64,000 nucleotides of DNA, from the sequence record MG770228.1, one strand, 5' to 3'. A program made the position numbers and the translations under genes. Below the pieces are notes generated by a model. The model was given only the letters and a program-made list of their open reading frames with translations. It was not told the origin of the DNA and searched no databases. Each line of letters opens with the position of its first letter. The first letter of the stretch is position 1. The stretch is from Escherichia phage PMBT57. Of this stretch, positions 8,056-20,204 are shown in pieces.

Positions 8056-8166
8056 ATTTGAAAGAACTCTTATTTTGGTTACCGCAAAAGAAGTGAAAAA
8101 TGTTGTGGAAAACTACTTCCCAATTAGGTTCGAATCCTAAACCAGAGTAAGAGTTCTTTCGAATTG
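8054..8166 (+). ncRNA. structured RNA module B: 19-bp closing stem enclosing a tRNA-type T arm
   Basis: 8054-8072 pairs with 8148-8166 (18 Watson-Crick pairs plus one G-U). Inside are TGGTT/AACCA and TTAGG-TTCGAAT-CCTAA. No ORF. It ends 8 nt before tRNA-Pro. Confidence 0.5.
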
Positions 8167-8174
8167 AAGATTTA

Positions 8175-8251
8175 CAGGATATAGCTCAGTTTGGTAGAGC
8201 GTCTGCTTTGGGAGCAGAGTGTCGTAGGTTCGAATCCTGCTATCCTGACCA
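8175..8251 (+). tRNA. tRNA-Pro (TGG), CCA encoded
   Basis: Acceptor CAGGATA/TATCCTG, anticodon arm TCTGC-TTTGGGA-GCAGA, T arm GTAGG-TTCGAAT-CCTGC. Confidence 0.92.
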
Positions 8252-8253
8252 AA

Positions 8254-8337
8254 TTAGTGCTCTGGTATATTACTTTTAACCCCTAGGTTATGCCACAGTA
8301 ATACAACAGATTGGGTCATCTGAAACCAGAGCACTAA
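8254..8337 (+). ncRNA. structured RNA module C: 13-bp closing stem with two internal hairpins
   Basis: 8254-8266 (TTAGTGCTCTGGT) pairs perfectly with 8325-8337 (ACCAGAGCACTAA). Inner stems are TATTACT/AGTAATA and CAGAT/ATCTG. It starts 2 nt after tRNA-Pro. Confidence 0.45.
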
Positions 8338-8455
8338 CCTAATGTGTGGGATGTAACAGTTAAATCCAGTTGCCGGAAGTGCAATTCTAGATACGCTGCC
8401 AATGTGTGAACGGTAAGGCTGTACAGGACTCGGACTCCCATCCCACCTCCTTATT

Positions 8456-8552
8456 TGAACCAGGTATGAACGGCTTACTTAGTATTAACTGCATAGGGGT
8501 ATGTTAGGGATACTTAGGTGGTAAGCAGTTGGTAAGAATCCAACATGGTTCA
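8456..8552 (+). pseudogene. possible decayed or interrupted tRNA-like relic
   Basis: A 7-bp acceptor-like stem TGAACCA/TGGTTCA (8456-62 / 8546-52) has an adjacent 5-bp/7-nt-loop arm GTTGG-TAAGAAT-CCAAC (8528-44). There is no CCA, and I could not fold a convincing D or anticodon arm. Confidence 0.25.
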
Positions 8553-8698
8553 TTCCCTATTAGCAGTAACATAGTCCTGAGTACGTGTGCTCTAAAGACA
8601 ATATTGGTGAGACAGTCCAATAGCTGCTAAATTAAATTCGTCCATTCCTCTTGGATGTGTAGCGAGTGAAGGTAACACTTAAAAATCCATGACCCATA

Positions 8699-8730
8699 GA
8701 AGCCTCCAGGATTAACTGGAGGCTTTTTTA
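8699..8730 (+). terminator. intrinsic terminator closing the tRNA/ncRNA locus
   Basis: AGCCTCCAG (8701-09) pairs with CTGGAGGCT (8716-24), followed by T6. Confidence 0.8.
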
Positions 8731-8752: not shown

Positions 8753-9124
8753 ATGAACCGTATTACTGAAGAACATATTGATAGCATCATTGAAGGTGTT
8801 TACTACTTCAATATGGCTAAAGCTGTAGAGAATGAAGCAGTTCTGATTCCTGAAGACCATTTAAAAGCATTGAGTACAACTACTGTTTGTGCACTGGTTA
8901 TTTCTAATGGGTTCACTATTACTGGTAAATCTGCTTGTGTTGACCCTAATACCTTCAATGAGGAGTTAGGTAAGAAATATGCTTACGAACAGGCCATTGA
9001 TAAGGTATGGGAATTGGAAGGCTATCTGCTTAAGCAAAACCTGTATGAGAAAGCTCAGAGCCAGGAAATGCTAAAAGGATTCCTGCAAGATGACAACTGT
9101 GAAGGTGGGGGCTGTAAAATCTAA
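8753..9124 (+). CDS. hypothetical protein (N4 gp48 position)
   Basis: 123 aa with an AAGGAAG RBS. The segment TGKSACVDPNTFNEELGKKYAYEQAIDKVWELEGYLL resembles the conserved phage N4-gp49/Sf6-gp66-type family as I recall it; unverified. Confidence 0.75.
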   Translation: MNRITEEHIDSIIEGVYYFNMAKAVENEAVLIPEDHLKALSTTTVCALVISNGFTITGKSACVDPNTFNEELGKKYAYEQAIDKVWELEGYLLKQNLYEKAQSQEMLKGFLQDDNCEGGGCKI

Positions 9125-9609
9125 TGGAAATTAAAGTTCACTTTACTAATTACATCGGAACCAAATGTGTAAATGGTTTCCCGATGAACAAGGCTGCCTA
9201 CTGCAAACTTCGTGGTTGGGATGTACCTACTAATGAAGACCAGTTAGAAGAGGGTTACTTAGTAGAGTACCCCGATTCTAAACCTAACCATGAACAATTT
9301 CGTGGTTATATTAGCTGGTCACCTAAAGCTGCATTTGAAGAGGCATACTGTGATGTGGACAAAGGCTGCACGTTTGGCCACGCAGTAGAGCTTATGAAAT
9401 CAGGTTTTAGAATGTCCCGTAAGGGCTGGAATGGAAAAGGAATGTATATCACATTGGTATCCGGTGAAAACTGGGCTATGGATAAACATGAAAATACCGT
9501 ATGCATGAAACGGGATTGGCTGGGTATTAAAACCGCTGACAATGAATTTATGCCCTGGGTTCCATCTCAATCAGATGTATTAGCAGAAGATTGGGTACTA
9601 GCTCAGTAA
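9124..9609 (+). CDS. two-domain protein with a C-terminal DUF2829 (Tad2-like) domain (N4 gp49 position)
   Basis: 161 aa with a TAATG overlap upstream. The C-terminal ~80 aa (FGHAVELMKSGFRMSRKGWNGKGMYITL...WVPSQSDVLAEDWVL) matches the DUF2829 hallmark pattern (GWNGKGMY... DxLAEDW). Confidence 0.75.
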   Translation: MEIKVHFTNYIGTKCVNGFPMNKAAYCKLRGWDVPTNEDQLEEGYLVEYPDSKPNHEQFRGYISWSPKAAFEEAYCDVDKGCTFGHAVELMKSGFRMSRKGWNGKGMYITLVSGENWAMDKHENTVCMKRDWLGIKTADNEFMPWVPSQSDVLAEDWVLAQ

Positions 9610-9610
9610 G

Positions 9611-9642
9611 AAATAAAGCCCCTCTAGTGAGGGGCATTTTTT
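9611..9642. terminator. bidirectional intrinsic terminator between convergent genes
   Basis: GCCCCTC (9618-24), TAGT loop, GAGGGGC (9629-35). Flanked by AAATAAA on the left and ATTTTTT on the right. It sits between the + gene ending at 9609 and the vRNAP stop at 9644. Confidence 0.8.
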
Positions 9643-9643
9643 A

Positions 9644-12600
9644 TTAGTGGGTAAGGTTGAACCAAGGGTTGAGGGTAGGTGCTCTTAGTCCTTGTCCGAA
9701 GCCTAATGAGTAATCCAGTCTTCCTTCAGCCAGCATGGTTAGCATGTTGTCCTGAATTGGCAGACCTACATTACCAAACATGGCAGGAGCAGGTACTACT
9801 GTAGCAATCAGAGAATGTACTGGGTTGTTTCTAATCATGCTCATAGCAACTTTAATGGAACGAATCTTAAAGTTGTAGAACCACATCAGACCCACGCTTT
9901 CCATATAACCACGGAAACGACCAGGCAATCTGTCATAGTTAACAAACTCTTCAGTTACCTGACCCAATGCTTCAGAAGAGGATTTCTTCTTACGTTTCAC
10001 TAAATCATCATAGATGATGGCTTTAGCAATGAAGTCTGAATACTCTACTGTTTTCTGGATACCCTGGAACAGAGCAGTGTCCTTAGCAATAAGAGCATAA
10101 CGGCCAGCATTACGTACTTTTTCTGGAAGTTTATTAGCAAGTTTTTCCATGTACTCATAAATCTTACCTTCAGCTACTAACAGGTCATCACGACTAATAC
10201 CAGCATCAGCAATAGAAGAGAACTCACCTGCTTCAATCAAAGGCCAGATGCTCATACGACGATGGCTATCAGTAATAGATTGAATCTCGGTTTTAAGTTT
10301 ACGAACCAGATTAGGATTGCCTTCAGCAGCACGTAATTCTGCTTCTGCATCAATCTGACGTAAGCGAGATTTAATGTACTGATTAATCTCTGACGCCTTA
10401 CGAGGAATATTCACAGCAATATCCTTAACAGGAACACCACGTCCAATCATCTGGTAGATGTTAGCAAGGAAGTTAACTGCCGGTACTACAACAGATTTAA
10501 CAACAATTACTGTCTTAGCATCCTTCACCAAGTTCTGAATGGTATTTTCAGCATTCATTACTACATGATATGCCTTATTACCAAATGCACCGAGGAACAT
10601 CTTCTTAACAGTATCAAGGGTGCTAGGTGACCAACGAGAGTTACCAGTCCATACATCACCAATAGATGCAGCACGATAGCCAAGTGCATCATTCAGCATA
10701 TCCCTACGAACCCATAACTCATCCTTACCAAAGAGTTCTTCAGCCTTACGACGAGTCTCAATGTTCATTAGGTTAATTGCATCAGCCAGTACTGGGTCAT
10801 CAATTTTACCTAACAGGTTTACATATTGAGATTTATTAGCACTGGAGTCTTTAATGTCTTTCTCATACATAGCATGTAATTGCTCAATGAGAATGTCATT
10901 AAAACGTTGTGCTTTAGCCTCTTCCACCTGACGACCACGCCATACACCCACCATCTTAGCAAAATGATTGTCTTGGTTTAGATGCTTCAACATATTAGGG
11001 TCAACGGATTGCTCATAAGCAACTACCTGACCTTTGCTGTTATAAATTGGCATCAGTGGTTCACGCCCACGTTCACCTTTAGCCAGAGCTTTGGTAATAC
11101 GCTCTACGGTTGGTTTGTCAGTAATACGACCAGCAACCATAGTACCTAACGTAAAGCCAGTACCAATATCCACGCCACCAGCAGTATTACGAACGTTCTG
11201 AAGAATACCTTGAGAGTATGGAGCACGGGCAGCTACTGGGCTGAAGTAATAACCTTTAGAACCAGTACGGAAACCAGTGCTTCCCTGATAAGTACCAATA
11301 CGAGTAAAAGATTGGCTATTTAACTTAGCAAACTCTTTATCGTCAGCAATAATCAAATTCACACCTTGCTGGTTCTCTACAGGGATATAGCCCTTAAAGT
11401 GATTCAGCAGAGTACGATTATCGCCTTTAGCTTTACGCATCTCTTCAGTACGTTGACCCACCATATAAGCAATGGAGAACTCCATACCTTCCACTTCTGA
11501 TTGAGCCAATTCTGACAAAAGGTCACGGTCAGACTTATTCATCAATTCCAGAGAGTACAAAGTAGTGAGCTTATCAATAGCAGCTACATCTGCCACAGGA
11601 CTATTAGTAATACGTTCACCTAACAAACGACTAATAGCATGGGCATTACGAAGGAGGTTATTACCTACTTCTCCTGTAATCATGTATTGAGCCAGTTGCT
11701 TAGATTTCTTCTGAACCAGATTCCAGTTTCTACCTGCTTGGTTCTGAATCTCTTTTTCCAGAGTAGAGATTTCATCTTTCACTTTCTTGGATGAAGAGAG
11801 TAAATCTCTAATTTCAGCCATGCTCATAGTTTCACGTAGAACAGCTAAATCTGTTTTACCTAAACCAGTATGCATTGCAGACCACTCGGTATCAGTCAAT
11901 TTACGAGAGAACTTACCAGCAATGACTGTAGGTAAATGCTCACGGAATTGTTGACGGTCTTGAGAAATCTGGCTCTTAACCAATTTGATTAAGTCATAGA
12001 CATTGGCATTAGTCTTAGTACGACCAACAATGTCATTAACTAAGTCATGGAAAGGTTGCCATACTTTACCCTGGTTCATAGCAGTCATAACACCCTGAGC
12101 CACTATTTCACCTTGTTTTTCAGATGCAATAGCAGCAGTCAGTTTAGCCAGATGAGCAACACCTTTAGCAGCTACATTAGAAGGGTTAGCAATTACCTTA
12201 TCTGCCTTTTCAATAACAGTTTCAGATAACCGTTCAATGCTATCCGTTACGTACTGATTAGCACGGTCAATGAAGTTACCGGTAGGGGTTGCTACAGCAT
12301 CATAGAAGGACTCTCGTTTCAGAGCAGCAGCCATGATTGTTTCTGACAGAGCATCAATACTATCCTGAACATTAGTAGCCTTCTGGTCACCCGCCATACG
12401 ACGGTTCAGAGATTCCATTACCTGAGTACCTGCATTGGTAAGCAGAGTATCTACATCATTCCCTAATTTCTTATCTGCTTTAGGTACAGGCATTTCTTTA
12501 ATGATTGAACGTAGTTCTTCATTAACCATAGCCAGACCCAGGAATGTAGGTAACAGACTGGTTCTGCCTTTGGCATCTACTTCAACCAGATTAGCACCAG

Positions 12601-15600
12601 AGATAGTGTCATATTTCTGTTGAGCGTAGTAACGGTCAGCAGGGTTAGTACTATCAGGGTCAGCCATGAAATGTTCTACCGTAAGGTGTTTCATTACATG
12701 GGTATAAAGTTCCTGAGCACGAGCCATAGCGTGTGGGTCAATTGCAGCTTCAGTTGCTAATGCAGCAGTAACCATCTGGAATACAGATTGTTCCTGGGCA
12801 GTCATATTGAAGCCACGAGACTGAACATCACGAACTAGTCGAGTAGCACTCATTAATGCATTAGCCACATTGCCACGACGTTCTACTTCTGTAACTGGGT
12901 CAGTACGAAGGTAATCAGTTACCAGTTTATCGAAGGTCTGATTCAACTGAGACAGACGTTCATTATTACCATATGCTTTGCTATGGAACAGTGTGCCATC
13001 TTTAGCTACTGCCTGAGTTGTAGGTTGGCTACGCATCAAAATTGCAGAATTAAACAGCAGATTAGAGAACATATCTTCTCCCAATGCAGGAGCTTGTTTA
13101 CGTCCCCAAATCAATTTCTTAATGGCCTGATAAACATCTTTCACCATTTGAACCAGTGAAGATGTTCTCTTCTGTTTAGCAGCCAGAGCACGGTTAGCTA
13201 ACCCCCAAGCCATAAACTCATTAAGAGCAGCAGCTTTAGAAATAGCTGGGTCAACAAAGCCATTACTCAAATGACCTTCAATAGTTGCAATAGCATCAGC
13301 ATATGCTTCTCTCATTTCTGGAGAATCTTTGGAAATATCCAGAGAACGGAACTGTTCCATCAGACCTTCCAGGTTCTCAATAGCCTGCTTAGATGTAGGG
13401 CTTACTTCATTACCCTGATAGAAGGAATAAACTTCCTCGAAGGTAGAAGCATGAACCAGTTCATGAATGAGGGTTTCCATAGATGGGCTAACCAGATAAA
13501 TGGTCTTATCGTCGAAGTTAGTCCAGCCATAAATATTACCTGCCTGAGCTTCTTCCATTTCCTGAGAAGTCAATTCAGTAACATTCTTCTGACGAGCATA
13601 TTCTGCAACCTGAGTAGGTGTACCGTAGATAATCTTATAGTCTTTAGCTGCCAGTGATTTCTGAATCTCTGCAAGAGTAGCTGCCTGAGTAGATGGCAGA
13701 TTACTAATCTTAGCCAGGTTACGAATAGCAGTAGCAGACAGGATACGAACACCGGATGCCTTATGCTCACAGCCTACCATACCAAAGTCTGGATTCACTG
13801 GTTCTTTTTCAGAAACAGTTTCTTCTTTGACTTCAGCCTTAGCCTTAGCGACTTTTTGTTTACGGGCTTCTAACTCTTCACGGAAAAGTTTATTCAGTTC
13901 ATCAGCCTGTTGTTCAGGAGTCATATTGCTGAGGTCAATCTTACCGTTGTTCTGATAAGGAGCACCTACAGCAGCCATCTGGTCAATGGACAGATTTACC
14001 TTATCCAGTACCTTATGGCGAATATCTACACCCAGTGCAATATTACGTAAGTTACGTTCAATCAGAGATGCAGCATTAGCAATATCATCTACAGTAGCAT
14101 TCTCACGTTGGTCATATTCCAGGGCAGATTTACCAATTGCTTCCAATGCTTCAGGGGACAACTTGCTGAAATCTACATTCTTCATGAACTTAGCATATGA
14201 TTCGTAAACATTCTTAATAGGGTTACCCTGCCAAGAAGTGTAAACAGCTTCATTAGCCTTACGACTAGCATCAGTAATGTCATTCAAACCAATGTTCATA
14301 CCATCAAAGATTTTGAGGGTATTCTTTGGTGCACCTTTCATAGTGGAAAGAGTTTGCATCATCATGCCATCACCAGTACCAATAGTCATAAATGGAATAC
14401 CTGCTACACCAGCCTGTGCTGGGGCATAGATACTCATTGGTACACGCATACGGTCATCAAGGTTAGTAGCTAATACCTGATTTGCTACTTCTGCATTTTC
14501 TGAGCCAGCAATGTAGAAAGTCTGAGAACCAGTCTCAATCATAGGAGCTAAGTTATTCAGAGAAGCCTGAATATCATTAAGTTCTTTCTGAGTAAGAAAA
14601 TCACCTTTCTTCCATGTCGGGTCTTTAGCCTTCTCTGTCAGTTTCTCCTGTACTCGTTGTTTGAACATATCTTCCAGCACTACAGATTGAATCTGAGTAG
14701 CTTTCTGTAATTGTTCAGTGGAGTACACCAGACTTTCACCTACAGTCTGAGTAATACCATTACGTAGTGGTTCTACAAAGAAGTGCAGCATATTTTCCTG
14801 AAGTGCCTTCAGTTGCTCACCCTTAATGGTATAGGTCTTAGGATTGATTTTCCCTTTGGCTCCTGCACCTGTGGATTGTAGTTCCAGTACACCTTTACGT
14901 TTAACAGGAACAGTAGAAGTCAGTGTTTCCATATCTTTCAGGAAACGAGCAAGAAGTTCTTCAGCATGTGCTTCTGAAGCAGCTTGCTTACCAAACATTG
15001 CCATAGCAGCAGAGATGTTTGGGTCTTTAGCACGAGCTTTCAGCACATCAGACATACGCTCATAGATGGCATCAGTAACAGAACTAACCAGCTTACCTGC
15101 AATACCACGAGCACCAGAACCATAGATGGTAATAGTCAGCGGGTTCTTAGCAATACCACGTTTAAGTTCTAAAGCACCATTCTCACCAAGATTAATATCC
15201 GGTAAGAACAAATCCATCAGAGAAAGAAGACTGTCTATCTGGGACTGAATAGGCATATTAGAAGCGTAGTTACTACGTAACTTACCCAACGATTCCATCA
15301 AAGCATTAGTGGATGCTTGATATAAATCATTATTGTCAGCAGTAGAACGATGCTCATTCATGGTCTTATTTGGAGAACCAATGAACAAGCCACCTTTGGC
15401 AATGTTACGAATCCAGTCAGGGGTAAACAGGCCACCTGTCATTAGCATCATGGCATTGATTGGACCATTAGTAACACCATCTGCTTCTACATACAGTGGG
15501 GTTACAAATGCAGATTTATCCTCTGCTACTAAGTAACGGGAATACTCCATAAGAGCCATCAATGCTACGAATGACTTCCTATCTCCTAATGCTGTATTCA

Positions 15601-18600
15601 GAACATCAACTGCATTTTCTGGTAAGGAACCAGTGGTATTAAACTCAACCATCATATCAATGGCTGGTTTCAGATTACCTTCCAGTAATTTAGTTAACTC
15701 ATCTGACATAACCTCACGAGTCATAGTATGGACTTTAATGTCCAATGCCTGAGCCAGACCTAACTGGAATGCAGAGAAGTCTTCATTGTTCTGGTTCGAT
15801 AAATCCAAAGTAGCTTTAGTAGGTAGGATAGCCTCACGAACCAGTTTGGCTGATTGAGGATTGTATTTACCTAACATCTGCATACGACCAACACGGGTCA
15901 TATTGTATGCATAGTGAATAGGCACAGTAGAGATGTCTTCACTCTGTGCTCTTACCTGCTCAATGACGGAGAACAGTTGGTTGTAAGAGTCCTCTACTGA
16001 ACGGTTCTTACCTTCCAGAGATTTAGCATGATTATCATTAAGTAACTCTTTATTCAGAGTACCAGCACCCATCAGTTCGAGAATACGGTCTTTACCTAAC
16101 GTCTCATAGAATTGAACCATTGGAGTGTGTACATAGAACTCTGTAGCCTGTTCTGCTTTCAATGCAGCCTTCTGTTCTGGAGTATTACGAACAGCAGGAT
16201 TACGAAGCTGAGTATTAGCTACAGGAGGAATGTCATTACCAAAGAACATCTTCTCTGTAGGATTTACTAAAACAGCTTCTTCAATAGCAGTAGGGAAGCT
16301 ATTAATTGGGTCGAAGGAATCCAGTTCAGTAATGGTGTACAGACCAATCGTCTTCTTATTATCTGGGTCAATTTCTGACATATCCACGATGTTCTCTACA
16401 ACATCAGTAGACTCTACAAATGCAGCCAGAATTTCAGCAGCCATTGCTGTAGGGATACCTTTGGTATAACCCAATGGAGCATTTGGATTACGAGATAATC
16501 CCCAGTAAGACTCAATTTTCTGAGCCAGGGAACTAACTGCTTCAGTGAGTGTCATACCAGTATCAAATTGCTCTACTAAACCTTCTGGCAGCAAGGCTTG
16601 GTCAATACCAGTAATAGCAGCAACATCTTTTGCATCTTTGATAGCAGTATTGCTGGTAGCAGTAAGTCTCCACTGAAGACCCGCTAATACAGCAGTCTGT
16701 AGCAATTGCTCATTGTACTTAAAGGTATCCCCATCCTGTTCAACGATGTTAAGTAACTTACCGCCTACCCAACGGTTGGCTTCCGTACCCTGAGCAAAAC
16801 GTTTACCAACATCCTTAGTGTTAAGGAACTTAGCCAGACGGGAACGAAGAATATCAGCAATACCTTCCCCATGTTCCATGAGTTCTTTATATCGCTTAAT
16901 AACTTCCCCATTAAAAGCAGGATTAGCAACTTCTTTCTCAGTAAAGAGTTCATAACGAGCACGAGAAGACAGAGCTTGAGCTACCTCTTTTAGAGGTGCT
17001 TCTGAACCAACAGTACGGGATTTCTGTTCTTCCAGTAAGGTAAAGGACAATTTGAAATAGTTCTTAATACCCTCTGCTTTAGAATCAGCAGTACCTACCA
17101 ATGAGGGGTAAACAGCATCGATACCTTCTCTTAATTCTTCTGTAACTGTACGTTCTTTTACAGAAGTTTCAGTTTCTTTAACAGATTCAGTAGGTTGCTC
17201 GATGGTATCCTCATTAGTGAGGGTAGCATCCTGTTTTTCAGACTGGCTCACAGGTTCTTTTATAGCCTGTGGTCTAGACTCTTTAGTAGTAGGTTCTGTT
17301 TTAACAGGTTCACTAACAGGAGTCTTAGTCTGTACAGTAGATGTAACTGGTTCCTGTTTTGTAACAGGAGTTTCTTTAACCTGATTCACGGAGTCAGCTT
17401 TCTGTTGAGAAGAAGCAACGTCTCGATTGCCTTGACGGAATGCCTTGACCACCTCAGCAGCAGGGGCGTTAAGACGTGAATCCAATGGAGTAACTTTTAT
17501 ATGACTGACCTTCAGTTCCGGGTAAGCCGAAGCGAGGGCATTAGCAATATCCGCTACCGTTTTCGCTTCAAGAGCAACTTGCTGGGCAAATTTAACCGAC
17601 TTAGTGTCATAGGGATTGACCCCCAATCCGGTACGGCTACGAACCCATTCTCTGTCAGCAGTAAGAGCTTGGTAGTGGACAGACTTATTCTTATCCGCAT
17701 TCCCCGTAACAAGATGCTCATTCAACGCTCCAACCTTATTCTGCATGTGCTGGGCGAACTGCATAAAGTCGTTCAGGTAAGCGGAGGCCAACTCGAAATT
17801 ACCAGAGTTATACGCAGACCGAATCCTATTCGCATGTTGCAACGCAGAGTATTGTCCTTCCTGAGTTCTGCTCTCATCCGTCTTAATCTGTTTACTCACA
17901 ATGTCTTGAGGACGTAATCCAAGACGGGCAGCTTCTGCATCATATTCCCGTGCCCCCTTCAGGATTGCAGCAGCATTCTGAAGGGCAGCAATTTGGCGAT
18001 TATTCAGTTTAATACGACCATCAGCAGCATGTTTAAGAACAACATTTACAGATTCTGGATTGAGCTTTTCAGGAGCTACTTCAGCAGCTAATGCTACGTT
18101 CTGCATTTCTTGTGGACTGGATTCTTCAGTCACATCCAAAGAACCATTCTGGGCAGATTCATTAATCATTCGATTAATAACATTCAGTGCACCAATTACT
18201 TTTGGTGTGTTCTGAATATTAGCTGTCAGATTTGTATAACGATTGAGTAACTCAATAGCCGGAGAATCTTTAGGAATGCTATCCAGTGCAGCAGGGTCAC
18301 GGTTAATGAATTGCTCAAACTCTGAAACAGCATCATACATATAAGATGCAGCTTCCATCAGTGCTTGAGGATTAGATTCATCTAATGTGTTAACTAGGTC
18401 TGCTAACTTTTGAATAACCTGTACTTGGTCAGTAGAACCAGCTACAGCATTACGAATATGCTCTGGTGCTTCCTGATAATTTTCAGGATTAAAACGAGTA
18501 GCATTCATTAAGTCAGAAACATACTGGTGTGCTGCAACTTTCTGTTCTGGAGTAGCATCAGTTGCTTCAACAGCATCACGAATAGTAACTTCTGCTTCTG

Positions 18601-20146
18601 GTGCTTGAGCCATAGCTTCTTGTGCTGCCTGTGCAACATAGTCATCAGCAACAGGAGATGCTTCTTCATTCTGCTTCATAACCCGTTCACCACGAGCTAC
18701 CAAAGTGTTCTTAATAGGAGAAACAACCTTACCTGCTACACTACCAGCAGCTTTAACACCAGCCATTGTGGTACGCAATACAGGAGCAGTTGCAGCACCT
18801 GCTAAACGAGCAGCACCAGCCGGAGCCTGTACAACACCAGCAGAACCAAAGCCATAAAGAGCACCTAAACCAGCTTGTGTACCGACACCTTTAAGCAGGT
18901 CTTGGTTCTTATCAATGTTTTGTTGCTGTGCAATATTCTGAGCCAGTTGGCCTGTAGCACCCTGAACACCTTCTTCCACTGTTTCACGGGCAAGGTTCAT
19001 ACCTACAGCACCTAAAGAACCAGCACGGAAAGGAGCCATCTCAAAACGAGATACTAGAGGACCAGTTGCAGCAGCAATAGGTAATTGAATAGCAGCAGCA
19101 GTAAGACCAGTTTCAGATGCAGTTTGACGACGAGCCTGTTCAGGGGACATACCATCTTTAATATGTTGCTGATAAACAGGAGACTTCTCTAAGTCTTTAA
19201 GACTCATCTTCATAATTTCGTCAGCAGTTTGTTGGTATGCACCACCAGCTTCCATTGCACCAACACCAATCATACCTGGTGCAGCTCTGCCTACAGTAGA
19301 GGCAATACGAGCCAGTGACTGAGTACCAGTACCTGCATCAATAGCACCAGCCAATGCAGCACTACGAAGAGTATTTACTGGAACAACTGCTTTACCCAGT
19401 AAAGATGCACCCCTTAATACAGGACCAGCACCTAATAGAGAACCTACCCCTTCCGCTAACCCATCAGAAATAATAGAGTCAGTTTGAGCAGCGTTCTCAA
19501 TTGAACCTACAAAATCACGTCCAAATTTAGATAAGGAAGCTACTATGTCATTAGTGCCTTCTTTCTTATCTGTTTGATACTGACGTTCACTCTCTACTTC
19601 ACTCATTAAATTACGAGCAGCAAAGAGCTTACGTTTATCTTGTAATGCTTGGCTTTGGGTAGCATGGACAGCATCATTAAACTTACTCAATTGTTGGGCA
19701 ATGACAGCACCTGCATCATCGTTGAGTAAGCCTGCCCCAAGAGCACCAATGCCCCCAAGGGTATTAACAAAACCAAGACCAACACCAGTAGCAATATCCC
19801 CCAGTTCTTCCCCAGGAGTTCTTGTAGTAACTGAATCATTAAATACCTGGTTCCCTGCATCAGCACGAGCGTTGATAAGTTGTAAGCCTTGCTCAACCCC
19901 ATACTTATTCATGATTTGCATTGGAGTCAGATTCATGAAATCTGATTGCACTGTCCCTGGTTCAAATGCATTAGCCCCAACATTACCAGTACGGGCAGCT
20001 TGCATTTGATAAGCAGCATCAGGAGAAACAAGAGGAGTAGTGACACCTTGTTCAGCTTTCTTCTGGGCGGTTGCAGTAGAGACGTCAACTTGCTTTGCAT
20101 TGGTTACGCTGTCTGCGAACCCAGCCAGTCTATCAAATACTGACAT
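9644..20146 (-). CDS. gp50: virion-encapsidated RNA polymerase (vRNAP), 3,500 aa
   Basis: Giant ORF. I place the start at the second in-frame ATG (MSVFDRLAG), which has an AGGAAA RBS 8 nt upstream and gives 3,500 aa as in N4. The central region carries T7-like motifs: A (YVEADGVTNGPINA), B (KRGIAKNPLTITIYGSG) and C (LKIFDGMNIG). Confidence 0.95.
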   Translation of the reverse strand: MSVFDRLAGFADSVTNAKQVDVSTATAQKKAEQGVTTPLVSPDAAYQMQAARTGNVGANAFEPGTVQSDFMNLTPMQIMNKYGVEQGLQLINARADAGNQVFNDSVTTRTPGEELGDIATGVGLGFVNTLGGIGALGAGLLNDDAGAVIAQQLSKFNDAVHATQSQALQDKRKLFAARNLMSEVESERQYQTDKKEGTNDIVASLSKFGRDFVGSIENAAQTDSIISDGLAEGVGSLLGAGPVLRGASLLGKAVVPVNTLRSAALAGAIDAGTGTQSLARIASTVGRAAPGMIGVGAMEAGGAYQQTADEIMKMSLKDLEKSPVYQQHIKDGMSPEQARRQTASETGLTAAAIQLPIAAATGPLVSRFEMAPFRAGSLGAVGMNLARETVEEGVQGATGQLAQNIAQQQNIDKNQDLLKGVGTQAGLGALYGFGSAGVVQAPAGAARLAGAATAPVLRTTMAGVKAAGSVAGKVVSPIKNTLVARGERVMKQNEEASPVADDYVAQAAQEAMAQAPEAEVTIRDAVEATDATPEQKVAAHQYVSDLMNATRFNPENYQEAPEHIRNAVAGSTDQVQVIQKLADLVNTLDESNPQALMEAASYMYDAVSEFEQFINRDPAALDSIPKDSPAIELLNRYTNLTANIQNTPKVIGALNVINRMINESAQNGSLDVTEESSPQEMQNVALAAEVAPEKLNPESVNVVLKHAADGRIKLNNRQIAALQNAAAILKGAREYDAEAARLGLRPQDIVSKQIKTDESRTQEGQYSALQHANRIRSAYNSGNFELASAYLNDFMQFAQHMQNKVGALNEHLVTGNADKNKSVHYQALTADREWVRSRTGLGVNPYDTKSVKFAQQVALEAKTVADIANALASAYPELKVSHIKVTPLDSRLNAPAAEVVKAFRQGNRDVASSQQKADSVNQVKETPVTKQEPVTSTVQTKTPVSEPVKTEPTTKESRPQAIKEPVSQSEKQDATLTNEDTIEQPTESVKETETSVKERTVTEELREGIDAVYPSLVGTADSKAEGIKNYFKLSFTLLEEQKSRTVGSEAPLKEVAQALSSRARYELFTEKEVANPAFNGEVIKRYKELMEHGEGIADILRSRLAKFLNTKDVGKRFAQGTEANRWVGGKLLNIVEQDGDTFKYNEQLLQTAVLAGLQWRLTATSNTAIKDAKDVAAITGIDQALLPEGLVEQFDTGMTLTEAVSSLAQKIESYWGLSRNPNAPLGYTKGIPTAMAAEILAAFVESTDVVENIVDMSEIDPDNKKTIGLYTITELDSFDPINSFPTAIEEAVLVNPTEKMFFGNDIPPVANTQLRNPAVRNTPEQKAALKAEQATEFYVHTPMVQFYETLGKDRILELMGAGTLNKELLNDNHAKSLEGKNRSVEDSYNQLFSVIEQVRAQSEDISTVPIHYAYNMTRVGRMQMLGKYNPQSAKLVREAILPTKATLDLSNQNNEDFSAFQLGLAQALDIKVHTMTREVMSDELTKLLEGNLKPAIDMMVEFNTTGSLPENAVDVLNTALGDRKSFVALMALMEYSRYLVAEDKSAFVTPLYVEADGVTNGPINAMMLMTGGLFTPDWIRNIAKGGLFIGSPNKTMNEHRSTADNNDLYQASTNALMESLGKLRSNYASNMPIQSQIDSLLSLMDLFLPDINLGENGALELKRGIAKNPLTITIYGSGARGIAGKLVSSVTDAIYERMSDVLKARAKDPNISAAMAMFGKQAASEAHAEELLARFLKDMETLTSTVPVKRKGVLELQSTGAGAKGKINPKTYTIKGEQLKALQENMLHFFVEPLRNGITQTVGESLVYSTEQLQKATQIQSVVLEDMFKQRVQEKLTEKAKDPTWKKGDFLTQKELNDIQASLNNLAPMIETGSQTFYIAGSENAEVANQVLATNLDDRMRVPMSIYAPAQAGVAGIPFMTIGTGDGMMMQTLSTMKGAPKNTLKIFDGMNIGLNDITDASRKANEAVYTSWQGNPIKNVYESYAKFMKNVDFSKLSPEALEAIGKSALEYDQRENATVDDIANAASLIERNLRNIALGVDIRHKVLDKVNLSIDQMAAVGAPYQNNGKIDLSNMTPEQQADELNKLFREELEARKQKVAKAKAEVKEETVSEKEPVNPDFGMVGCEHKASGVRILSATAIRNLAKISNLPSTQAATLAEIQKSLAAKDYKIIYGTPTQVAEYARQKNVTELTSQEMEEAQAGNIYGWTNFDDKTIYLVSPSMETLIHELVHASTFEEVYSFYQGNEVSPTSKQAIENLEGLMEQFRSLDISKDSPEMREAYADAIATIEGHLSNGFVDPAISKAAALNEFMAWGLANRALAAKQKRTSSLVQMVKDVYQAIKKLIWGRKQAPALGEDMFSNLLFNSAILMRSQPTTQAVAKDGTLFHSKAYGNNERLSQLNQTFDKLVTDYLRTDPVTEVERRGNVANALMSATRLVRDVQSRGFNMTAQEQSVFQMVTAALATEAAIDPHAMARAQELYTHVMKHLTVEHFMADPDSTNPADRYYAQQKYDTISGANLVEVDAKGRTSLLPTFLGLAMVNEELRSIIKEMPVPKADKKLGNDVDTLLTNAGTQVMESLNRRMAGDQKATNVQDSIDALSETIMAAALKRESFYDAVATPTGNFIDRANQYVTDSIERLSETVIEKADKVIANPSNVAAKGVAHLAKLTAAIASEKQGEIVAQGVMTAMNQGKVWQPFHDLVNDIVGRTKTNANVYDLIKLVKSQISQDRQQFREHLPTVIAGKFSRKLTDTEWSAMHTGLGKTDLAVLRETMSMAEIRDLLSSSKKVKDEISTLEKEIQNQAGRNWNLVQKKSKQLAQYMITGEVGNNLLRNAHAISRLLGERITNSPVADVAAIDKLTTLYSLELMNKSDRDLLSELAQSEVEGMEFSIAYMVGQRTEEMRKAKGDNRTLLNHFKGYIPVENQQGVNLIIADDKEFAKLNSQSFTRIGTYQGSTGFRTGSKGYYFSPVAARAPYSQGILQNVRNTAGGVDIGTGFTLGTMVAGRITDKPTVERITKALAKGERGREPLMPIYNSKGQVVAYEQSVDPNMLKHLNQDNHFAKMVGVWRGRQVEEAKAQRFNDILIEQLHAMYEKDIKDSSANKSQYVNLLGKIDDPVLADAINLMNIETRRKAEELFGKDELWVRRDMLNDALGYRAASIGDVWTGNSRWSPSTLDTVKKMFLGAFGNKAYHVVMNAENTIQNLVKDAKTVIVVKSVVVPAVNFLANIYQMIGRGVPVKDIAVNIPRKASEINQYIKSRLRQIDAEAELRAAEGNPNLVRKLKTEIQSITDSHRRMSIWPLIEAGEFSSIADAGISRDDLLVAEGKIYEYMEKLANKLPEKVRNAGRYALIAKDTALFQGIQKTVEYSDFIAKAIIYDDLVKRKKKSSSEALGQVTEEFVNYDRLPGRFRGYMESVGLMWFYNFKIRSIKVAMSMIRNNPVHSLIATVVPAPAMFGNVGLPIQDNMLTMLAEGRLDYSLGFGQGLRAPTLNPWFNLTH

Positions 20147-20204
20147 AGTAGGTTTCCTATACAAACTTATATCTATTAGAAATCACACTATACCTAGTGT
20201 AAGG

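Follow-up and report, generated by a model that had tools for sequence, protein, structure and literature searches.

The gp49 locus

The stretch of DNA analysed here (the window) comprises 64,000 nucleotides of Escherichia phage PMBT57 (sequence record MG770228.1). It belongs to an E. coli phage of the N4 type (Enquatrovirus); between positions 8000 and 10500 the window shares 97.0% of its nucleotides with phage N4, and 98.6% with SPSP and AL25. Our subject is the open reading frame (ORF) at 9124-9609, whose orthologue is named gp49 in the N4 GenBank record EF056009, the upstream gene being gp48. A first-pass annotation, made by a model from the sequence, had located a DUF2829 (Tad2-like) domain at 9367-9609, at the C-terminus of what it called a gp49-position protein. 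Both the label and the coordinates are right: residue 82 begins at nucleotide 9367, the stop codon ends at 9609, and the translation holds exactly the two strings that had been quoted, FGHAVELMKSGFRMSRKGWNGKGMYITL ... PWVPSQSDVLAEDWVL. The gene is organized as follows:

9124-9609, plus strand: orthologue of N4 gp49, 161 aa, with an N-terminal module and a C-terminal Tad2-like domain (ORF list, N4 annotation)
9124-9366, plus strand: N-terminal module, residues 1-81 (core ~8-78), homologous to the N-domain of RyR Tad
9367-9606, plus strand: Tad2-like domain (PF11195/DUF2829), residues 82-161; the Pfam match, residues 83-159, corresponds to nucleotides 9370-9600

The full length of gp49 is covered by phrog_872 (E = 1.4e-66), and its AlphaFold2 model has a mean predicted local distance difference test (pLDDT) score of 89.6. 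RefSeq already labels N4 gp49 and several orthologues as "DUF2829 domain-containing protein", and in this respect the Tad2 assignment is not new: gp49 is a further member of a well-studied family, and standard annotation arrives at the same answer. What is new here is the N-terminal family of ~80 aa, together with the sponge domains to which it is fused; the Tad2 assignment itself adds little to the existing annotation.

The Tad2-like domain and its predicted binding pocket

The presence of DUF2829 at the C-terminus of gp49 was confirmed by profile search. The match to Pfam PF11195 ("Tad2-like", the renamed DUF2829) spans residues 83-159 and takes in profile positions 2-72 of 73; at E = 1.1e-23 and 83.9 bits, the gathering cut-off being 25, it is far beyond chance. 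The first-pass annotation had also suggested a comparison with Tad2 structures and with the residues that contact the ligand, and both comparisons came out in its favor. A phmmer search against the PDB sequences gave matches to four experimentally characterised Tad2 proteins: ModTad2 (9eib, 3.6e-16), Tad2 8v3e (3.7e-16), SPO1 Tad2 (8sme, 3.9e-15) and HgmTad2/AcrIIA7 (8kbi, 2.3e-10; 9kzr, 1.2e-9).

SPO1 Tad2 (gp34.65; PDB 8sme, 8wje), the founding member of PF11195, is 45% identical to gp49 over the domain. Both have the same predicted fold, consisting of helix alpha1 and an antiparallel sheet, and in both the beta2-beta3 insertion is short. The differences lie in the host and in the architecture, since SPO1 is a Bacillus myovirus whose Tad2 is a single domain of 89 aa, whereas gp49 comes from an E. 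coli podovirus of the N4 type and has the 81-aa N-terminal module in addition. The best PDB match, and the closest solved relative of gp49, is ModTad2 (also MoTad2; 9eib), from a prophage of Myroides odoratus. This single-domain protein sequesters His-ADPR (ADPR, ADP-ribose) and cUMP/cCMP, and is inactive against type I Thoeris.

According to Yirmiya et al., the residues of SPO1 Tad2 that contact 1''-3' glycocyclic ADPR (gcADPR) or ordered waters are W25, N26, I63, T65, D67, H71, W73, S76, T78 and D79. When gp49 is aligned with SPO1 Tad2 and with two homologues of proven function, these positions correspond to W102, N103, I135, T137, D139, M143, W145, S148, S150 and D151, respectively, so that eight of the ten contacts are identical. 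The two differing positions are T78, with a conservative change to S, and H71, changed to M; at the latter the alignment shows M in Tad2_70 and V in Tad2_71, and Tad2_71 inhibits three Thoeris types. The gp49 residues that correspond to W21, N22, S90, T92 and D93 of HgmTad2 are conserved as well, and Li et al. found that the mutants W21A/N22A and S90A/T92A/D93A of that protein abolish gcADPR binding. The pocket residues are kept across the relatives of gp49 down to ~45% identity. Li et al. predicted a loss of gcADPR binding in only ~1% of Tad2 homologues, and in the founding Tad2 study Thoeris was inhibited by four of the five homologues assayed.

At the level of sequence, the pocket supports as ligand an ADPR-derived signal of the Toll/interleukin-1 receptor (TIR) type, without telling which one, and other Tad2 proteins bind N7-cADPR (cADPR, cyclic ADPR) or cUMP. 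A further comparison concerns HgmTad2/AcrIIA7 (8kbi and others), which carries the insertion that forms a cyclic-dinucleotide pocket and from which gp49 differs in this point. Li et al. described how, in HgmTad2, 41 residues inserted between beta2 and beta5 create the pocket for cGG/cGAMP. No insertion of this type, ~41 aa long and bearing the residues that contact the dinucleotide, is present in gp49, where the stretch has ~19 residues (S113-D131), compared with 24 in SPO1 Tad2, a protein that shows no cyclic-nucleotide binding. Thus, binding of dinucleotides of the cyclic-oligonucleotide-based antiphage signalling system (CBASS) in the manner of HgmTad2 is not expected of gp49 and, judging by its sequence, is unlikely.

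The N-terminal module and its partners

The extra domain of ~80 aa that had been noticed ahead of the Tad2-like domain is real and strongly conserved. Residues 1-81 of gp49 have no match in Pfam, NCBIfam, PADLOC or the PDB sequences. The module is conserved at least as strongly as the Tad2 half, and in 38 homologues (to ~45% identity) the residues K14, M21, Y26, R30, P35, G44, L46, E48, Y49, Y62, S64, W65, P67 and F71 are invariant. In the monomer model it consists of four strands and two helices. Both hhalign (96.2%, E = 2.6e-9, 67 aligned columns) and BLASTP (E = 5e-5) show it to be homologous to the N-domain of CB1 gp68, the RyR Tad of a Pectobacterium phage, and the two have in common the motif K-x6-PM...EGYLV-x-Y...SWSP-x3-F. 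A Foldseek search against viral models retrieved from Yersinia phage TG1 a protein with an RyR domain (E = 2.4e-4, TM 0.73).

A word-indexed search with the 81-aa N-domain alone retrieved seven proteins; instead, 1.84 billion cluster representatives were searched exhaustively with a profile. In this search the family amounted to 3,005 proteins at E <= 1e-3, and to 1,427 at E <= 1e-10. Among the best 149 of the 3,005, the Pfam partners were PF21825 (47 proteins), PF11195 (Tad2; 45), PF13876 (Acb4; 15) and PF24729 (Acb2/Tad1 hairpin; 5), the only further ones being one AP2 and one HNH. PF21825, which is located directly downstream of the module, is Sequestin, a validated sponge of 3'cADPR. Fusions of the module to Lockin also exist (Tal et al., Table S4; P0275). 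Consequently, the module is fused almost exclusively to sponges, and these belong to six unrelated families: Tad2, Sequestin, Acb4, Acb2/Tad1, RyR Tad and Lockin. It should be noted that single-linkage BLAST clustering of the partner extensions merged Tad2, Acb4 and Sequestin through multi-domain bridges, and that this clustering was used only for the Lockin fusion and for divergent Tad2-like tails.

In about 30 of the best 149 proteins the partner domain matches no known family, and these domains could be candidates for new sponges. The module stands alone in three of the same 149, and a standalone ORF of this kind, gp22, occupies the exact position of gp49 in Erwinia phage phiEaP8. Approximately 100 of the two-domain proteins were already present in the Tad2 homologue table of 2023. 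The other loci at which we found the module are:

P0128-P0275
L002:12143-12694
L003:2501-2737
L004:2165-2926

In many metagenomic two-domain homologues of gp49 (P0060-P0118), the predicted protein has additional hydrophobic residues at its N-terminus (MKKLGILLSATVGM...) that precede the module, probably the product of a mis-called start codon, the alternative being a signal-like peptide.

The gp48-gp49 cassette

The gene immediately upstream of gp49 and the elements that surround the pair are listed below:

8698-8727, plus strand: terminator-like hairpin with a 12-bp stem followed by a T-run (consensus scan; putative terminator)
8753-9124, plus strand: orthologue of gp48, Acb4 (PF13876), a cyclic-nucleotide sponge (Pfam, PDB, N4 annotation)
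9618-9635, both strands: bidirectional intrinsic-terminator-like hairpin with a 7-bp GC-rich stem (scored on both strands)
9644-20164, minus strand: virion RNA polymerase (vRNAP), orthologue of N4 gp50, 3,506 aa (ORF; annotation of N4 and relatives)

The product of gp48 matches PF13876, the Acb4 family, with E = 8.4e-34, and the PDB entry 9e4w ("anti-CBASS 4") with E = 4.7e-4. N4 gp48 was named Acb4 by Doherty et al. and is a published cyclic-nucleotide sponge. A possible source of confusion between the two genes is that PF13876 bears the name "N4 Gp49/Sf6 gene 66", yet it matches N4 gp48 and not gp49.

In the sequence TAATG, the stop codon of gp48 (TAA, 9122-9124) shares one nucleotide with the start codon of gp49 (ATG, 9124-9126), which we read as termination-reinitiation coupling of both genes. 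A programmed frameshift that would yield a gp48-gp49 fusion was also considered and rejected, because the frame of gp49 has a TAA at 9115-9117, three codons 5' of its ATG. To the left, the hairpin at 8698-8727 closes the upstream tRNA region and marks the edge of the unit. To the right, the hairpin at 9618-9635 lies within the 34-nt gap between the convergent gp49 and vRNAP genes; it scores as a terminator on both strands, in agreement with the convergent terminator that the first-pass annotation had placed after gp49. With the TAATG overlap and a terminator-like hairpin on each flank, gp48 and gp49 make up a compact cassette of two genes.

The anti-signalling hotspot and related fusion proteins

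Fedorova et al. (2026) described the interval between the primase and vRNAP genes as an anti-signalling hotspot conserved in N4-like phages, in which genes for Tad2, Tad3, Acb4, Sequestin, Bes1 and Bes2 are found. In the window, the gp48-gp49 cassette is placed at the vRNAP end of this interval, of which vRNAP is the right-hand boundary. At the other side lies the following gene:

2435-4582: primase (PriCT_1 match)

The RyR Tad of phage CB1 (Fedorova et al. 2026) is built like gp49, with an N-module followed by a C-terminal sponge for an ADPR-derived signal. Both proteins are encoded in the same hotspot of N4-like phages and their N-modules are homologous, but the gene of CB1 gp68 adjoins primase and that of gp49 adjoins vRNAP. 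The sponge halves are also different: in RyR Tad it is all-helical, similar to RyR Repeat12, and forms dimers, while in gp49 it is the Tad2 domain. In the crystal of RyR Tad the N-domain is a domain-swapped dimer in which beta1 is exchanged, and this domain alone had no activity against type I Thoeris.

The combination of Acb4 with a 3'cADPR sponge, which gp48-gp49 would represent, is also known from Acb4-Sequestin and Acb4-Tad2 fusions (Ab09 gp59, Pm86 and CL). In the 253-aa protein of Pseudomonas phage CL, Acb4, the N-module and Sequestin are present in one polypeptide, and the part formed by Acb4 and the N-module can be aligned colinearly along gp48 and gp49 of N4. This colinearity indicates that N4 has the split version, with Tad2 in the slot of Sequestin, the validated 3'cADPR sponge. 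Thus, where CL has Sequestin as the third module of a single protein, N4 has two translationally coupled genes and Tad2. The N-module was also expected in Ab09 gp59, an Acb4-Sequestin protein, and it is not present there.

Proposed function of gp49

The first-pass annotation proposed that gp49 has an anti-defence role by sequestering a signal. With a coupled Acb4 neighbor and a location in a hotspot where Tad2 homologues have been reported, this prediction is plausible. We consider it probable, in a more specific form, that gp49 is an anti-Thoeris sponge of an ADPR-derived signal, with a tetrameric C-domain, co-produced with Acb4 and having the N-module as dimeriser. The C-domain (residues 82-161) would assemble as a homotetramer with pockets between protomers, and these pockets would sequester the ADPR-derived signal made by the TIR protein of Thoeris, so that the Thoeris effector would never be activated. 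The likeliest ligand would be 3'cADPR (1''-3' gcADPR), although His-ADPR or N7-cADPR may be bound instead. The gp48/Acb4 protein made from the same message would sequester cyclic nucleotides, and a single transcript could in this way blunt both signalling of the cyclic GMP-AMP synthase (cGAS) type (CBASS) and of the TIR type (Thoeris). As for the N-module, it may act as a dimerising scaffold like the one seen in the RyR Tad crystal, interchangeable among many sponge domains. Its partner sponges are all even-numbered oligomers (dimers, tetramers and hexamers), a condition that a dimeriser would suit. What the sequences show directly is the identity and fold of the domain, the conservation of its pocket residues, the order of the genes, and the homology and distribution of the N-module; the oligomeric state, the ligand and the phenotype of gp49, the timing of its expression and the part played by the N-module are what we infer.

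Several observations weigh against this proposal. In the literature we found no published assay of gp49 or of any two-domain Tad2 protein. Tetramerisation of Tad2 uses helix alpha1, which in gp49 comes immediately after the N-module. In addition, ModTad2 retains the canonical pocket and blocks type II but, as noted above, not type I Thoeris, so that conservation of the pocket does not identify the ligand. As far as is known, Thoeris is uncommon in E. coli, which makes the natural target system uncertain. On the plus strand, no sigma-70-type promoter was found for the cassette in a scan that does not cover N4 middle promoters. The conservation of the N-module, as read from the sequences, is stronger than a mere scaffold would need. 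Finally, the motif of the module is present in none of the 18 Tad2 proteins assayed by Hadary et al. (2025).

Another view of the module is that it is itself a second ligand-binding or targeting unit, which would make gp49 a bifunctional inhibitor. Under this explanation the ~75-aa module would be a seventh anti-signalling unit, either a sponge for another signal or an adaptor that takes sponges to a common target, such as a component of the host or of the phage. We regard this as possible but rather doubtful, and it is compatible with the sponge function proposed for the C-domain. It would agree with the invariant aromatic and charged residues (Y26, Y49, Y62, W65, K14, R30, E48), which are many and go beyond what a simple dimeriser apparently needs, with the fusion of the module to six unrelated sponge families, and with its occurrence as a standalone ORF at the gp49 position in Erwinia phage phiEaP8. 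Sponge-sponge fusions are common, Sequestin itself having been found by "guilt by fusion", and in RyR Tad the module is short and dimeric.

The remaining alternatives concern the Tad2-like half. That gp49 is a sponge for a ligand foreign to Thoeris, such as the cUMP/cCMP of Pycsar, a CBASS dinucleotide, c-di-GMP or the decoy 2'3'-c-di-AMP of Panoptes, is in our opinion unlikely. Tad2 homologues do bind cGG and cGAMP (HgmTad2, SptTad2) or cUMP/cCMP (MoTad2, Tad2_70) at sites apart from the ADPR pocket, and Tad1/2 sponges have been reported to trigger Panoptes. However, gp49 keeps the canonical ADPR pocket (eight of ten contacts), its ~19-residue stretch is without the 41-residue insertion of HgmTad2, and the adjacent Acb4 already covers cyclic nucleotides. 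A role outside defence, in which gp49 would assist the surrounding replication and recombination block by binding a small molecule or as a structural component, would fit with its place as the last gene of the replication module (primase, Sak4-like ATPase, single-stranded DNA-binding protein) and with the absence of a gp49 phenotype from published reports. This seems quite improbable to us when the immediate neighbor is a validated sponge, the fusion partners of the N-module are nearly all sponges, the pocket residues are kept in relatives to ~45% identity, and experiments in related phages support this interval as an anti-signalling island. Least credible of all is an anti-CRISPR protein similar to AcrIIA7, in spite of the similarity to AcrIIA7/HgmTad2 (8kbi, 2.3e-10; 9kzr, 1.2e-9) and of the annotation of homologues in phages Huey, Louie, Mimir124 and 24-32N as "anti-CRISPR protein". 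E. coli is not known to possess Cas9 systems of type II-A. Moreover, Li et al. could not repeat the anti-CRISPR effect ascribed to AcrIIA7, as they saw no inhibition of Cas9 by HgmTad2 or other Tad2 homologues either in vitro or in vivo, and in the view argued by Yirmiya et al., DUF2829 proteins counter Thoeris and not CRISPR.

Implications

N4 counts among the classic model phages, and phages like it are in therapeutic use. To know that gp48-gp49 probably neutralises signalling of both the CBASS and the Thoeris type helps to predict host range, as well as sensitivity to counter-counter-defences, for example Panoptes, which is triggered by sponges. By analogy with the Tad1/2 sponges that trigger this system, gp49 may add to the Panoptes sensitivity of N4. 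Another practical aspect is that knock-down of gp48 may be polar on gp49 as a result of the coupled start.

The wider value of these results lies in the N-module, whose family is large (3,005 representatives), lacks a Pfam model and is joined to six structurally unrelated sponge families. If the module is a functional unit, its presence could point to new sponge families among the approximately 30 of 149 unmatched partners.

Other genes of the interval

The region between the tRNA-Pro gene (8175-8251) and the left hairpin of the cassette, 8252-8697 (~450 bp), contains no ORF of at least 40 aa. Related records annotate an undetermined tRNA-like feature near this region, and ARAGORN found no tRNA in it. 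Upstream, also inside the hotspot, four tRNA genes are located at 7573-8251 (Asn-GTT, Ser-TGA, Thr-TGT and Pro-TGG), between gp47 and gp48-gp49. The orthologue of gp47 (6799-7242, plus strand, 147 aa) has no Pfam match; its first ~50 aa are structured, and behind them comes a long, highly acidic low-complexity tail rich in E, K, T and V. The orthologue of gp46 (6239-6796, plus strand, 185 aa) has no Pfam match either, and it is 48% identical (E = 4e-54) to Bes1, the product of Ab09 ORF60 and a RuvC-like protein of "broad evasion of signaling" (Fedorova et al. 2026). By this similarity, gp46 is probably a third anti-signalling gene of this phage in the same hotspot.
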